A DNA stretch of 63,976 nt, the filler included, from a candidate division WOR-3 bacterium (GTDB lineage Bacteria; SDB-A), in NCBI GenBank assembly GCA_016934535.1. It is 4 parts of 4 records of this genome, joined end to end, with 100 filler letters (N's around TTAATTAATTAA, not from the genome) between each part and the next. Parts side by side here need not be neighbours in the genome. Positions count along the whole stretch, not along the records: positions 54,806 to 63,976 come from JAFGSQ010000032.1; 3 more parts are not named here. One strand, written 5' to 3'. Position 1 is the stretch's first letter; every line of letters starts with the position of its first letter. Below the pieces are notes generated by a model. It had not been told where the DNA came from. It saw only the letters and a program-made list of their open reading frames with translations, and did no database searches. The position numbers and the translations under genes were made by a program. Shown here piece by piece: positions 57,912 to 63,976 of the stretch.

Positions 57912-58946
57912 ATGAAATTTGCCCTCGCTCTCCTTTTAGCCGTTTCTCTGTCCGGATCGTTGTTCGGAGCCCAGAGAATGGCGGTCCTCGAAGAATTCAC
58001 AAGTCACACCTGACCTTCGTGCGCAAACGCCAGCCGTGAGCTGGATTCTCTTGCAGTTCAATACGCAGACTGCACTGCCGTCATCGCCTATTACATAAGC
58101 AACGGTTTACCATATTATTCGGCTGAAGGCAGGCAGAGGTTGAATTTTTACCCTCCGCCTTACTGGTATAACGGTTCGTTTGTTTACGCGACACCCTGGC
58201 TTTGGTTGGACGGAAACAAGGACCCCGGATACAGTTACTCTGGCTGGGAGACTTATTTGACAAACAGGCTGTCAGTCCCTTCCCAGCTCGATATAGACAT
58301 GTACGCCGAATTCAACTCCCAAACGAACGCGGGATTCGTCGACATCTGGGTCTACAACGAAGGAGCGGACACACTCGTTAGAAAGCTAGTCTGCGTCCTC
58401 ACTGAGTCGGGTCTTTATTATGTCGCGTCTAACGGCCTTCAGTGGCACGACCATGTGTGCAGGGATATGATACCGGACCAAAACGGGACGCAAATCACCC
58501 TTTATCCCGGCGACACTACTTATGTCCACCTCGACTTCACCTTCGATCCGACTTGGGTGGCAGCAAACTGCGAAGTTTTGTGCCTGGTTCAGCACGATTC
58601 CCTGACCGCCGACAGCATAAAGGACATCATGCAGGGAGGAAAAACTTCATTGGTTGCAAACGCTGTTGAAGAACAGCCCGTATCACTTCCCCGGGAATTC
58701 AAATTTTCAGTCTGTTATACAAACGATATCACCGTCGAATACGCCCTTCCGTTTGCCTCCCGTGTAAAATATGAAATAGTTGACGTATCAGGCAGAGTTC
58801 TTCAAACGCGCAATCTCGGCGTCCAGAATGCGGGACAGAACTTTTTGAGAATAAACAGATCGGAAATCAATTGCTCTTCAGGGGCGGCTTTCCTGATAAT
58901 GAAGATAGACGACACCGAATACACTGAAAAACTTATTTTCTTTTAA
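57912..58946 (+). CDS. Omp28-like thioredoxin-fold secreted protein, predicted selenoprotein (U34, UxxC), with T9SS-like CTD
   Basis: GAGGT RBS; ATG 57912 gives MKFALALLLAVSLSGSLFGAQRMAVLEEFTSHT-TGA(58011)-PSC and stays in frame with ORF 58140-58946. Confidence 0.85.
58030..58044 (+). promoter_or_regulatory. Candidate bacterial SECIS hairpin
   Basis: CCAGC-CGTGA-GCTGG; loop begins 21 nt after the TGA. Confidence 0.6.
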
Positions 58947-58953
58947 TAGGCTC

Positions 58954-58988
58954 AACCGCGGATTTTCCGCTGAAAATCCGCGGTTTTC
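58954..58988. terminator. Intrinsic terminator
   Basis: Perfect 14-bp stem AACCGCGGATTTTC-CGCT-GAAAATCCGCGGTT followed by T's. Confidence 0.8.
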
Positions 58989-59038
58989 TTGGTAAACAAT
59001 ATATTTCATAATCCCAAAGATTCTCAGCGCGAACAGCG

Positions 59039-59965
59039 TCAGAGAGGTCTGTTGAGGCTCCTCAGGCATTTTGCGAAAACATCGTCTCTTATTTTTCTTT
59101 CGAGATGAGGAATGTTTCGCGGGACCCGGTTCAGATATTGAGCGATGTCTTTTCTTTTACTTGCAGTAAAATGAAGCGCGAGCCTGACGAAAAGAGCGCG
59201 GGCTCCGACAATTTCATTTCTGCGTTTGATTCCTTTTAAATCAAATACCGGAATGCCGGTTATCTTTTCTGTCATTTCGGCGACTTCGTCGAGAGTTTTG
59301 GTTTTTTCGGTCTGGATCACTATATTTCTGCCTTGTGTCCTTTTGACCTGTTCAATGAACTCTTCATTTCCAAGTATATTTCCGTCCGTCGATATATCTA
59401 ATGAGAATTTATTTTCTTTGACCGCTGATTCCAAAATGTATTCGTTGTATTTTTTTATCGCGGCTTCAGGATCCGGATCGAACCTCGGCAATACTTTGTC
59501 TTTGTCAACGAGGCCGCTTTTTTCGGCGCTGATATAGGTTTTGTGAGAACTCCATTCATACAGAGAAGGATCTTGAACGGCGCCTGTCAACAAGCATTTC
59601 AAATGTATATAACTGATGAGAGAGAGCAATAACGACTCTTTGTCGCAAAGCACGGCTTTGTACCTGCCTTGAAACAGGTGTCCTTCTGTGTCGTGCTGTT
59701 TGTTGAACCATTGAGTATAAGACTGCATCAATCCCTGCATAATCCTCGATAGCGGAACCAAATCGGTTTCTATAAGCAAATGAAAGTGATTTTCGAAAAG
59801 GGAGTAAGCATAAACGGCAAAGTTGTATTTTTCCTTGTAATCTTTCAGCTTTGACAAAAACTTTCTTTTGTCCTCATCGTTAAGGAAAACAGGCGATCCG
59901 TGATTGCCCCTCGCCTTGACGTGATAAAGGGCTCCCGGGAATTCAATTCTTCTTTTTCTTGACAT
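59039..59965 (-). CDS. RAYT-like Y1 (HUH) tyrosine transposase with C-terminal DnaA-like HTH
   Basis: YHVKARGN, NHFHLL (HUH), GHLFQGRYKA, YIH and YEWSS. Confidence 0.88.
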   Translation of the reverse strand: MSRKRRIEFPGALYHVKARGNHGSPVFLNDEDKRKFLSKLKDYKEKYNFAVYAYSLFENHFHLLIETDLVPLSRIMQGLMQSYTQWFNKQHDTEGHLFQGRYKAVLCDKESLLLSLISYIHLKCLLTGAVQDPSLYEWSSHKTYISAEKSGLVDKDKVLPRFDPDPEAAIKKYNEYILESAVKENKFSLDISTDGNILGNEEFIEQVKRTQGRNIVIQTEKTKTLDEVAEMTEKITGIPVFDLKGIKRRNEIVGARALFVRLALHFTASKRKDIAQYLNRVPRNIPHLERKIRDDVFAKCLRSLNRPL

Positions 59966-60035
59966 ACTATTTTGTATCAGGTCAATTGACTTTAATCAAG
60001 CATTATTGCTATTTTTCAGAACGACCCCATGGAAT

Positions 60036-60075
60036 GTAAATATTACTTGACAAAATGTAAACAATACTTTACTAA
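60036..60075 (+). promoter_or_regulatory. Promoter with tandem palindromic operators for the XRE regulator
   Basis: GTAAA-N6-TTGAC (60036-60051) and GTAAA-N6-TTTAC (60057-60072) overlap TTGACA-17-TACTAA. Confidence 0.65.
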
Positions 60076-60081
60076 TTGCTT

Positions 60082-60285
60082 GTGAAAAACAAAGTAAAAC
60101 AGTTCCGGTTTCAAAAAAATGAAATGACTCAACAGAAACTTGCTGAATTAACCGGCGTGTCGAGGCAGACAATAATAGCAATAGAAAAAGGGGCTTTCAA
60201 CCCTTCAGTAAGACTCGCTCTGAAAATAGCAAAAATATTAGAAACCGGCGTCGAGTCGCTTTTCTTTTTGGAAGAAAAAGATTAA
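60082..60285 (+). CDS. XRE/Cro-CI family HTH regulator
   Basis: MTQQKLAELTGVSRQTIIAIEKG.FNPSV.LAL; probable leaderless GTG start. Confidence 0.92.
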   Translation: MKNKVKQFRFQKNEMTQQKLAELTGVSRQTIIAIEKGAFNPSVRLALKIAKILETGVESLFFLEEKD

Positions 60286-60299
60286 AAAGTGAGGATAAA

Positions 60300-60980
60300 A
60301 TGAAAATATCAGAAAGCGTTTTAAGGAACATCTGGCTTATATTCCTCGTCATTTTGCTTTTTTTGGCCAACGCCGTTCCATATTGGGTCTTTGTCGCTTC
60401 AGCGTCCGTTCTTTTTCTTTCCCCTGTTTTGCTGGAATTCAACAGAAAGAGGTTAATAGACGAAAGGCAGATCCAGATAAGCCATTTCTCGAGCCACGTA
60501 TCTTTTTACGTTGTTTTGGCTCTTTTGTTCCTTGTAATAAATAGAGAGTACATTTCAAAAGGCGTAAATCCTCCCCCTCAGTTCTATGCGCTGATCGTTG
60601 TACCCTTTGTCTTGAAAATGCTTATAAGTCTGTATCAAAACTACGGCCCGGTTCCGACTGCGCAGTGGACCGGATACTTTTTTTCGTTTTTCTGGCTTCT
60701 TTTTGTAGTTCTTTCTCACGGCTTCAGCGCCGCGACTCTGATAGAGTCCGTTCCATTTGTCGTTATTTTTCTCGTCTCGTTGTTTTCTAAAAAATTTCCT
60801 CTTGCCGGAGGCATCCTTTTCCTTCTTCTGACTGCGGCTTTGCTCGCATTTTTCAGAGGCTGGTGGCGGCTTGACGTCTACGTAAGACTGCTGATGTATT
60901 CGCTCATTCCGCTTCCGCTTTTTATGAGCGGATGCGGGCTCCTCTATCATTATTTCGCCGGCAGAAAGCATGATGCGTAA
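60300..60980 (+). CDS. Hypothetical multi-pass membrane protein
   Basis: About 8 hydrophobic segments; DER motif common in partners of this regulator family. Confidence 0.8.
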   Translation: MKISESVLRNIWLIFLVILLFLANAVPYWVFVASASVLFLSPVLLEFNRKRLIDERQIQISHFSSHVSFYVVLALLFLVINREYISKGVNPPPQFYALIVVPFVLKMLISLYQNYGPVPTAQWTGYFFSFFWLLFVVLSHGFSAATLIESVPFVVIFLVSLFSKKFPLAGGILFLLLTAALLAFFRGWWRLDVYVRLLMYSLIPLPLFMSGCGLLYHYFAGRKHDA

Positions 60981-61852: not shown

Positions 61853-62881
61853 ATGAGGAAATTTTTGACACTGTTGTTTGCAGGAACAGTCGTTCTGAGT
61901 TCCGGCTTGTCGTCCATGGAGATAAAAGCTGCGGGAGCTTCCTTCCCGTATCCTTTTTATTCAAAAATCTTCGACGTCTACAATAAACTTACGGGACATC
62001 AGATCAACTACAACCCTGTCGGTTCAGGAGGAGGAATAAATCAGCTCATAGAAAAAACGGTCGATTTTGCAGGAACGGACGCGCCGATGAAAGACGAAGA
62101 AATACAAAAGGCAGGTGCTGATATCATTCACATACCAACTTGTCTCGGAGCAGTTGTACTGACGTACAATCTGCCGGGAAATCCCTCGCTAAAACTTACA
62201 CCGGAAATCATTGCAGGAATATTCCTGGGTGAAATAACCAGATGGAACGACCCGAAAATAACTGCTCTCAATTCAGGTGTTGAACTGCCTAATTCAGATA
62301 TAGTAGTCGTCCACAGAGCTGACGGAAGCGGTACAACATACATATTCAGCGATTATCTGACAAAAGTCAGTCCTGAATGGGAGTCAAAAGTCGGCCGCGG
62401 AAAGTCTCTGGAATGGCCCACCGGACTCGCCGGAAATCAAAATCCCGGCGTGGCCGGTCTGATTCAGGCAACACCAGGATCTATCGGATACGTCGAACTC
62501 ATATATGCTCTATCAAACGGCTTACCTGTCGCCACGATAAAAAATAAAAGCGGCAGATTTGTATATCCGAGCATCGAAACAGTCAGCGCGGCGGCAAACG
62601 TCGAGATGCCTTCAGATATGAAGGTTTCCATAACAGATACGGATGCAGAAGAAGGCTACCCGATAAGCGGCTTCACGTGGATTATTCTCTATCAGGAGCA
62701 GTATTATCAGGGCAGAAACAGAGAAAAAGCCGAAACCGTAATCAATTTAATCTGGTGGATGATTCATGACGGGCAGAGTCACGCGGAAACCCTCCTGTAC
62801 GCGCCTCTTCCCCAGAGCGCCGTTAGAAAAGCCGAGGACCTTCTCAAATCCGTCACATTTAACGGCGCTAAAATTCTATGA
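61853..62881 (+). CDS. pstS: Phosphate ABC transporter substrate-binding protein
   Basis: AGASFPYP, GSGGG, DFAGTD, RADGSGTT, IGYVE and YPISGFTW. Confidence 0.96.
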   Translation: MRKFLTLLFAGTVVLSSGLSSMEIKAAGASFPYPFYSKIFDVYNKLTGHQINYNPVGSGGGINQLIEKTVDFAGTDAPMKDEEIQKAGADIIHIPTCLGAVVLTYNLPGNPSLKLTPEIIAGIFLGEITRWNDPKITALNSGVELPNSDIVVVHRADGSGTTYIFSDYLTKVSPEWESKVGRGKSLEWPTGLAGNQNPGVAGLIQATPGSIGYVELIYALSNGLPVATIKNKSGRFVYPSIETVSAAANVEMPSDMKVSITDTDAEEGYPISGFTWIILYQEQYYQGRNREKAETVINLIWWMIHDGQSHAETLLYAPLPQSAVRKAEDLLKSVTFNGAKIL

Positions 62882-62923: not shown

Positions 62924-63137
62924 CATCCCATTTTATTTCAAACGAGATGTCAAAAAAAAGTTCCCTCTCAAAAGGGGAAAGATAATATAATTTTATACTA
63001 CCCTCTTTCGATCTGAGGTGGGATTAAATATTAATGTTGTTGTTCTATGCCGCGATTTATCGTTTCTAATAAAAAGTATATATAATAGTATTGCATTTAT
63101 AATAAAATCCCGTTCATTCAAATTCAGGGAGGTAAAC

Positions 63138-63976
63138 TTGAAGAAAAAAGTTTTGGTCCTCGGAATTCTCGGTGTGTTTCTATTGCCGATGATTCTTTCC
63201 TCGGCGGTCAGAAGACCGCTCCTTGAAATACACTCGGGAGCATTTTGAAGCGGATGCGCTTCATCTGCAGGTCTGCAGAATACTTTCATCTCGACAAATC
63301 AGGACACTCTGACAGCTCTCAAGTATCAGCTCTATTCAAATGAACCACTGTATAGCCCTGACGGTTGGGGAAGATTTCAGTTCTACGGGGATTCAGTAAT
63401 TCCGCGCGCGAACATGGACGGAGCCGCCATGTTTTCTCCGACTTCCATCGCCACACTGAACTCTCAATACGCGACGGCAATGACAGTGCCCTGTTATGTT
63501 GATATCTTGCTCCAGGGAACTGCTGAACCCGATCTCATGTCAGGAACACTGAACATAACAATAATAGCCGAACAGGAACCCGGAGCCAGCCCCTATTATC
63601 TGCACGTGGCCGCTTGTTCTTACCATGTTCCTTATGGCGCCGGAAATTTTTCAGAATTTCATTATCCACTGAGAAAAATGTATCCGAATTATAACGGCAC
63701 TGCCGTAACTTTTACAGGCGTTTACCCGGAAACTCTTCAGTTTAATATTCCTTTCACCTTTTCTTCCTCCTGGTGGCATTTCGAAGCTGACGACGTCTAT
63801 TTCGCAGTGTGGCTTCAATCCAACAAAGCCACAGACAAACAAGTTCACCAGAGCAACATGATTGACATATCAGGTCTTAACGCCGTAGAGGAGACGCCTT
63901 CCTCGCCGGTTATGTCAAATACATTCGGACTCGGCAATTTCTATCCCAATCCATTCATCGGCACAGCCTTCATACC
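63138..63976 (+). CDS. Second Omp28-like secreted predicted selenoprotein (U37, UxxC) with T9SS CTD; 3' end outside window
   Basis: GGGAGGT RBS and TTG start; MKKKVLVLGILGVFLLPMILSSAVRRPLLEIHSGAF-TGA(63246)-SGC; frame stays open to the window end and reaches FYPNPF. Confidence 0.85.
63264..63279 (+). promoter_or_regulatory. Candidate bacterial SECIS hairpin
   Basis: TCTGCA-GGTC-TGCAGA; loop begins 21 nt after the TGA. Confidence 0.65.

Follow-up and report, generated by a model that had tools for sequence, protein, structure and literature searches.

Why does a reading frame that is open on both sides contain an in-frame TGA codon at positions 63246-63248 of the stretch studied here, and is this codon a stop? 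The stretch, referred to as the window, comprises 63,976 nucleotides and chains four contigs of a candidate division WOR-3 bacterium (GTDB lineage SDB-A; assembly GCA_016934535.1), whose genome is denoted G000. The gene in question, our target, is located on the last of them, contig C43, at contig positions 8333-9171; a second TGA-containing gene on the same contig is called the first gene. Based on comparative sequence analysis, we consider it very probable that the UGA at 63246 is decoded as selenocysteine (Sec) under the direction of a selenocysteine insertion sequence (SECIS), and that the target is a genuine selenoprotein gene whose product would be an exported, thioredoxin-like cargo of the type IX secretion system (T9SS).

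The motif around the codon reads VRRPLLEIHSGAF-TGA-SGC, i.e., LLEIHSGAF-TGA-SGC, and the frame remains open for 242 codons past the TGA, up to the final base of the window. A first-pass annotation of this DNA had described a signal peptide, this motif and a frame of more than 240 codons reaching YPNPF, all of which were recovered in place, the signal peptide as a K-rich, then hydrophobic stretch read by eye. Because the window ends where contig C43 ends, the target gene is cut off; its full-length orthologs comprise 349-351 codons. Full-length TGA genes of the phylum continue for about 315 codons past the TGA to a normal stop, and they start with ATG, GTG, or TTG 33-36 codons upstream of it, behind AGGAGG-type boxes. 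A22 and R24, in the numbering of the first sequence of the alignment, are invariant in 13 family members.

A first indication of recoding is the pairing of TGA with cysteine codons. Searching G000 by tblastn with the read-through product revealed five family loci, four with TGA (the target, C63, C51, and the first gene) and one with Cys in the same column (C56, NHTCSFC). The GTDB order and phylum of G000 consist of only six species genomes. Family matches were found in all six, each with at least one TGA copy, which is in good accordance with the proposal of the first-pass annotation that the selenoprotein family is expanded in this lineage. The 18 matches listed in the phylum are composed of ten with one TGA, six Cys forms, and two fragments that fall short of the motif. 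Adding the first gene to the ten TGA matches gives the set of 11 TGA genes used throughout. In these 11 genes of six genomes the TGA occupies the same alignment column, and six paralogs have TGT or TGC there.

The machinery for Sec insertion is encoded in G000. Matches to selA (505 bits), selB (309 bits), and selD (361 bits) all lie above the curated cut-offs, a tRNA-Sec match reaches 50.7 bits against a cut-off of 47, and the selD gene has an in-frame TGA of its own. The tRNA-Sec-like matches are located at two contig ends, G000:C67:1-75 (45.9 bits, just upstream of selA-selB) and G000:C11:3-82 (50.7 bits); they probably represent one gene split or duplicated by the assembly.

The public annotation implies a simpler reading, in which the TGA terminates a leader reading frame of 36 codons and a separate gene begins at an internal Met. 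The public protein records found for the target clade are indeed all N-truncated: they start at the internal Met (MDG..., 255-275 aa) and lack the signal peptide and the active site, and their names, for the orthologs 'FlgD Ig-like domain containing' or 'T9SS type A sorting domain' protein, refer to the tail alone. However, the stretch of 55 codons that separates the TGA from the internal Met shows conservation between genera and can be aligned with the thioredoxin-like domain of the Cys paralogs, which are continuous. A product starting at the internal Met would moreover have neither signal peptide nor redox motif, yet its T9SS tail requires export. We therefore regard termination at this codon as very unlikely.

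Recoding by selenocysteine calls for a SECIS downstream of the UGA. The first-pass annotation had pointed to a TCTGCA/TGCAGA stem with a GGTC loop 21 nt past the TGA, and this hairpin is present as described, its stem beginning 15 nt past the TGA. The hairpin of the first gene has the stem CCAGC/GCTGG (58030-58034/58040-58044) and a 5-nt loop, CGTGA. Its stem begins 16 nt past the TGA, one base later than that of the target, and the underlying DNA is unrelated. The same annotation had noted an equal spacing on dissimilar DNA, which applies to the loop G and U, found in the same columns in both genes.

For a comparison of all TGA genes we used an ungapped alignment starting from the TGA and a folding window of 24 nt (+15 to +38). 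A hairpin folds in 11 of 11 TGA genes, at -3.3 to -11.6 kcal/mol, and in none of the six Cys genes, whose values range from 0 to -1.5. Conservation of the hairpin among TGA genes, on which the first-pass reading had been made to depend, is thus seen. Loop position G32 is invariant in the TGA genes and U33 occurs in 10 of 11; the loops of the target clade are GGUC, GGAC, or AGUU. Within this clade, three sequences have U-A instead of A-U at one closing pair, a switch that replaces Leu by Gln in the protein, and the other five stem pairs are invariant. The first gene and its relatives have a different stem, GCCAG/CUGGC, with the loop G-U in the same columns as in the target. Over 26 distinct sequences this stem is 89.6% paired, compared to at most 39.6% in slid controls, and its pair 30-36 occurs both as U-A (12 sequences) and as C-G (11 sequences).

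Hairpins of the same kind accompany unrelated genes of G000. GGUC tetraloops on stems of 7-8 bp are located 17-20 nt past the UGA in four of them, a peroxiredoxin-like gene and three genes with a CU motif, and in the formate dehydrogenase gene (CARLUHSS motif) the hairpin at the UGA has GGUC inside its loop. The target hairpin thus matches what the SelB of this organism evidently recognises. In the whole genome, counting both strands, 95 GGTC-loop hairpins with at least 5 bp were found; in seven cases, the target among them, the hairpin comes after an in-frame TGA flanked by open frames on either side. We consider the clade with the other stem and the hairpins of unrelated genes to be stronger evidence than the covariation within the target clade.

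The bacterial SECIS of E. coli fdhF is likewise a hairpin soon after the UGA with an apical GGUC loop, of which the G and the U are contacted by SelB; its loop lies about 3 nt nearer to the UGA and its stem has a bulged U. As in the bSECISearch model, the target hairpin is a stem-loop shortly past the UGA with a G in the apical loop. An Rfam scan of 63100-63400 at E <= 10 gave no SECIS family and three chance matches. A second hairpin predicted by RNAfold over the UGA itself (63246-63263) was dismissed as incidental, being not kept in the orthologs as judged by eye on the alignment.

Might the codon be read through without selenium? Either TGA could be reassigned genome-wide to Trp or Gly, or Cys or Trp could be inserted by near-cognate tRNAs, the hairpin being a by-product of the encoded peptide. 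Such a reading could draw on the overlap of the stem with a conserved peptide motif and on P0014, a full-length homolog and library representative from a single contig of 2674 nt, which has W in the Sec column (..SDDWQIC..SAGQQ..) and groups with the Cys forms of the phylum. The W is most simply explained by a gene call under a table with TGA=Trp; P0014 is probably a TGA gene, and would then represent a further Sec lineage. Reassignment is at odds with the use of TGA in G000, where more long frames end in it than in any other stop (573 of 1066 open frames of at least 300 codons), and where it is also the terminal stop of the C51 paralog, the C56 paralog, and the upstream pstS-like gene. The recoded site is always the CxxC cysteine, the Cys paralogs have neither the peptide motif nor the hairpin, and the GGUC loop recurs at the same distance past the UGA in unrelated selenoprotein genes, all of which speaks against selenium-free read-through. 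We give this explanation very little credence and retain decoding as selenocysteine.

The frame downstream of the TGA is under purifying selection, as indicated by an omega of 0.05-0.135; this is a second point on which the first-pass reading had been made to depend. Between the target and its ortholog in G003, dN amounts to 0.168 and dS is saturated. Among the orthologs overall, dN ranges from 0.17 to 0.25 with saturated synonymous sites, and the closest pair, G003 and G004, has a dN of 0.082 and a dS of 0.608 (omega 0.135, 302 codons). Independent sequence data are available for parts of the target. A contig from a wastewater metagenome of another study is about 91% identical over 63447-63952, and third codon positions account for 32 of its 40 listed differences. 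An independent Logan contig of 380 nt covers 63099-63476 with 13 differences, which argues against a chimera at the 5' end of the target. Two metatranscriptome runs and the probable source run yielded no matching sequence, a result that speaks neither for nor against expression.

Several observations weigh against our interpretation. The G004 ortholog (L025, G004:C10) has an extra in-frame TAG about 27 codons past the Sec codon, where G000 has Gln and the other orthologs Trp; its frame is otherwise intact, which makes the gene a recent pseudogene unless the TAG stems from an assembly error. The target clade offers little covariation: one of the six pairs changes on both sides, probably in a single event, and the covariation score was equalled in 34 of 500 shuffles. 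In the C51 subgroup an A-G mismatch leaves only four contiguous base pairs. Since the codons of a conserved peptide, (S/Y)A(G/S)(L/Q)QN, run through the stem, protein constraint could explain part of the nucleotide conservation. The target itself ends after YPNPF, and its own sorting domain lies outside the window. Finally, the target and the C51 paralog are 93% identical in their first 30 nt and about 98% in their last 100 or so nt, and given these near-identical ends a partly chimeric assembly of the target retains some small probability.

The second stop in G004, together with the position of the target at a contig end and its mosaic ends, would suit a decaying pseudogene, or a TGA that arose as an assembly or sequencing error in this metagenome-assembled genome. 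Neither is compatible with a TGA in the same column of 11 genes from six independently assembled genomes, with the low omega, or with the single in-frame stop in each of the other TGA genes. Furthermore, a metagenome scan seeded with an N-truncated 'Omp28-related outer membrane protein' of candidate division WOR-3 (UniRef label) yielded 27 loci, and in 27 of 27 the TGA is found at the equivalent position in the UxxC, with a hairpin in the same place. Decay or error is extremely improbable. The first-pass annotation had likewise considered nonsense mutation and sequencing error unlikely, and the shared column, the purifying selection, and the complete Sec machinery bear it out. The features of the selenoprotein gene and of its surroundings are listed in Table 1.

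Table 1. Coordinates of the target gene, its parts and the neighbouring genes, counted along the window.
Feature	Position	Strand	Remarks
Shine-Dalgarno sequence GGGAGG	63127..63132	+	5 nt ahead of the TTG start; orthologs have AGGAGG before ATG in the same place
Selenoprotein coding sequence (very probable), 279 codons, TTG start at 63138	63138..63976	+	cut by the end of contig C43
Putative signal peptide, residues 1-23	63138..63206	+	read by eye: KKK, hydrophobic core, SSA before VRRP (..LSSA|VRRP)
UGA, very probably read as selenocysteine, residue 37	63246..63248	+	aligns with the Cys of CxxC in six paralogs and with TGA in ten other genes
UxxC redox motif U-S-G-C, TGC at 63255-63257	63246..63257	+	start of helix 1 of the thioredoxin-like domain
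Predicted SECIS hairpin, 6-bp stem TCTGCA (63264-63269)/TGCAGA (63274-63279), GGTC tetraloop (63270-63273)	63264..63279	+	
Thioredoxin-like domain, residues 28-115; candidate cis-Pro in VIP, residues 87-89	63219..63482	+	AlphaFold model of the G003 ortholog and profile matches
Beta-sandwich middle domain (Omp28-like region)	63498..63866	+	from the model; only the first gene has a Pfam Omp28 match here
VEETP linker and first strand of the T9SS C-terminal sorting domain (YPNPF 63942-63956)	63885..63976	+	
First gene, distant paralog (24% identity), TGA 58011-58013, hairpin CCAGC-CGTGA-GCTGG 58030-58044	57912..58946	+	
Upstream neighbour, pstS-like phosphate-binding protein gene	61853..62881	+	terminating TGA; name from sequence reading

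What kind of protein does the gene encode? The target has no match in Pfam or NCBIfam, and both the target and the C63 paralog lack a match to Pfam PF11551 Omp28; the first gene, at 41.6 bits, lies above the gathering cut-off of 34.9 bits. With a profile built from the 250 N-terminal residues, 7717 proteins were retrieved at E <= 0.001 among 1.84 billion, and CxxC is found at the homologous place in nearly all of the best 150 of these matches. For the G003 ortholog, in which residues are numbered one lower than in the target, an AlphaFold model with a pLDDT of 74.3 shows a thioredoxin-like unit (27-114) whose helix 1 begins with the motif, followed by two beta-sandwiches, one at 120-242 and a C-terminal one at 262-349. 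The family profile matches thioredoxins weakly over the motif region (E = 0.003).

The top Foldseek match of this model in the PDB is HBP35 of P. gingivalis (5y1a; E = 1.5e-12, TMq 0.51, 358 aligned columns). This T9SS cargo has a thioredoxin motif; according to PMC2907840, it reaches the cell surface and binds hemin, and its thioredoxin activity in vitro depends on its two cysteines. HBP35 (PDB 5Y1A) and the target family share a thioredoxin-like domain with a dithiol motif, a beta-sandwich, and a T9SS C-terminal domain; they differ in that HBP35 has Cys where the target has Sec, and sequence identity is 11%.

With regard to secretion, ortholog tails score 31.7 and 31.4 bits with TIGR04183 (cut-off 23) and the C51 paralog 22.9 bits. 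The remainder of the target's sorting domain probably lies on contig C51, outside the window; a 72-residue frame at the start of that contig, the would-be continuation of the target, scores 20.1 bits over model positions 17-71. PorU (479 bits, cut-off 420) and SprA_N (44.3 bits, cut-off 27, in a frame of 1883 codons) are present in G000, along with about 35 further T9SS-tail-like matches. Since ortholog tails pass the sorting-domain model and PorU and SprA are present, T9SS export and surface anchoring of the target are well supported, although we infer them from sequence. Of the earlier claim that these proteins are secreted by the T9SS, the tails and the machinery have stood up, and secretion itself keeps the rank of a prediction.

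Following the established bacterial model, the GGUC hairpin would recruit SelB-GTP-Sec-tRNA(Sec) to a ribosome paused at the UGA. The predicted product of about 350 residues would consist of a cleavable signal peptide, the thioredoxin-like domain, the beta-sandwich, and the type IX secretion C-terminal domain, with the UxxC about 14 residues from the mature N-terminus. It would be exported by the Sec translocon and then likely cross the outer membrane by the T9SS, where PorU would cut off the tail and anchor the protein on the cell surface. By analogy with HBP35 of P. gingivalis we propose a redox role at the surface, most likely that of a selenol/thiol-disulfide oxidoreductase.

Selenoproteins of this kind have been catalogued before. 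Table 1 of a 2026 review of the prokaryotic selenoproteome (PMC13188914) equates NF045500, 'Omp28-related selenoprotein', with 'Hypothetical protein GOS_C' and gives it a UxxC motif; GOS_C was predicted by Zhang & Gladyshev in 2008 (PMC2398784). As far as these sources describe it, this group shares with the target a thioredoxin-like fold, Sec as the first residue of UxxC, a SECIS-like hairpin past the TGA, and many Cys homologs. The NF045500 model is matched at E <= 0.001 by 58 of 65 family representatives. The target, however, does not match it at E <= 1, and the first gene and the Cys paralog score 20.4 and 22.8 bits against a cut-off of 200. No members above this cut-off were found in the six genomes of the target's own phylum or in the 86 genomes of the phylum of G006. 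We conclude from this that the target is a distant relative of NF045500 rather than a member. Rather than a new class, it represents a diverged offshoot of selenoproteins that have been known since 2008. The target clade has been found in a single phylum of six species only.

Outside this phylum, a search for related loci with an alignment of seven sequences gave only one tail match and one Cys homolog. The 27 WOR-3-labelled metagenome loci described above have the T9SS tail and score 29-54 bits with NF045500, below its cut-off. They form a clade separate from the target, with the stem GCCAG/CUGGC instead of UCUGCA/UGCAGA. In the phylum of G006, TGA occurs in 2 of 35 matches. Taken together with the 27 loci, this indicates that Sec forms of thioredoxin-like T9SS cargo are widespread. 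Our literature search returned nothing relevant that joins selenoprotein with Omp28 or selenocysteine with type IX secretion, or that deals with 'Omp28-related', and the main text and one supplement of BSepDB (PMC13326102) did not yield any Omp28 or outer-membrane wording.

The history of the family was studied in a maximum-likelihood tree of 36 rows with a midpoint root only, from which G003_C63 (a fragment of 114 residues) and G002_C59 were left out and for which 14 outside Cys representatives were hand-picked from the 150 best matches. The target clade and the pair C51/G002_C93 form one Sec clade (100/99), which branches within the Cys forms of this phylum. The first gene and the WOR-3-like Sec clade group together (99/95) and are surrounded by other Cys forms. 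The simplest reading is that of two independent switches between Cys and Sec, in either direction.

Within G000, the flanking genes of C63 match the flanks of the G003 and G004 orthologs with 78-87% tblastx identity (L030, G000:C63:35952-39743, against L025 and L026). Thus it is C63 that corresponds by synteny to the G003 and G004 genes, whereas the target represents an additional copy behind a pstS-like gene; in G002, a C51-type paralog follows pstS. The branch of C63 is much longer than that of the target (0.52 versus 0.095), so that divergence after duplication was asymmetric, the syntenic copy evolving faster than the new one.

Contig C43, of which window 63876-63976 is the last stretch, ends one base before the start of the reverse strand of contig C51, both measured on the C51 gene. 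Contig C51 starts with a T9SS tail of 72 residues and a stop, followed by the C51 paralog, and this tail is about 97% identical in DNA to that of the C51 gene itself. The genes are likely arranged as pstS, target, C51-type paralog, the assembly presumably being interrupted where the tails are nearly identical. The target and the C51 paralog thus probably lie in tandem, their ends homogenised by gene conversion. On contig C43, a transposase-like frame was noted by eye between the two Sec paralogs, on the minus strand (58943-60442; C43 4138-5637), with a REP-associated or IS200-like look (..YHVKARGN..HFHLL..).

The unrelated genes with GGUC hairpins in G000 were named by sequence reading. The three C-U-G motif genes (..DSTYDCUGGSELAE-like) and the peroxiredoxin-like gene (FYPGDFTFVU) are located at C19 6068 and 8067 (+), C18 4534 (-), and C2 23507 (-), where positions marked (-), here and below, refer to the reverse complement of the contig, counted from its first base. 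Two of the three C-U-G genes are 2 kb apart, each then followed by a T9SS-tail-like match. Two more in-frame TGAs with GGTC-loop hairpins in open frames, at C26 92390 (-) (..FFGSLCUPWFF..) and C45 39173 (-) (..CRSRUCREP..), could either belong to additional selenoprotein genes or have arisen by chance. When open frames were scanned genome-wide for U beside C, S, or T, 268 candidates were obtained, mostly chance, which is too noisy for a census of the selenoproteome.

For the annotation of these genomes our result is a correction, as the public records for the target clade miss both the signal peptide and the active site. In a wider sense, Sec forms of thioredoxin-like T9SS cargo recur in lineages of uncultured anaerobes, namely in the target's phylum, on WOR-3-like contigs, and sporadically in a third phylum. 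It is conceivable, though to our mind somewhat short of an even chance, that a small uncultured phylum has built a multi-gene selenoproteome of the cell surface from HBP35/Omp28-like T9SS cargo. In this scenario Sec would have been gained independently at least twice within the family, as suggested by the UCUGCA-GGUC and GCCAG...CUGGC clades with the same distance of the loop G-U, and the target clade would have expanded by duplication, probably in tandem, with conversion of gene ends and a faster divergence of C63. The coexistence of Sec and Cys paralogs in one genome offers a natural comparison of the benefit that selenium would bring to a redox protein of the cell surface.

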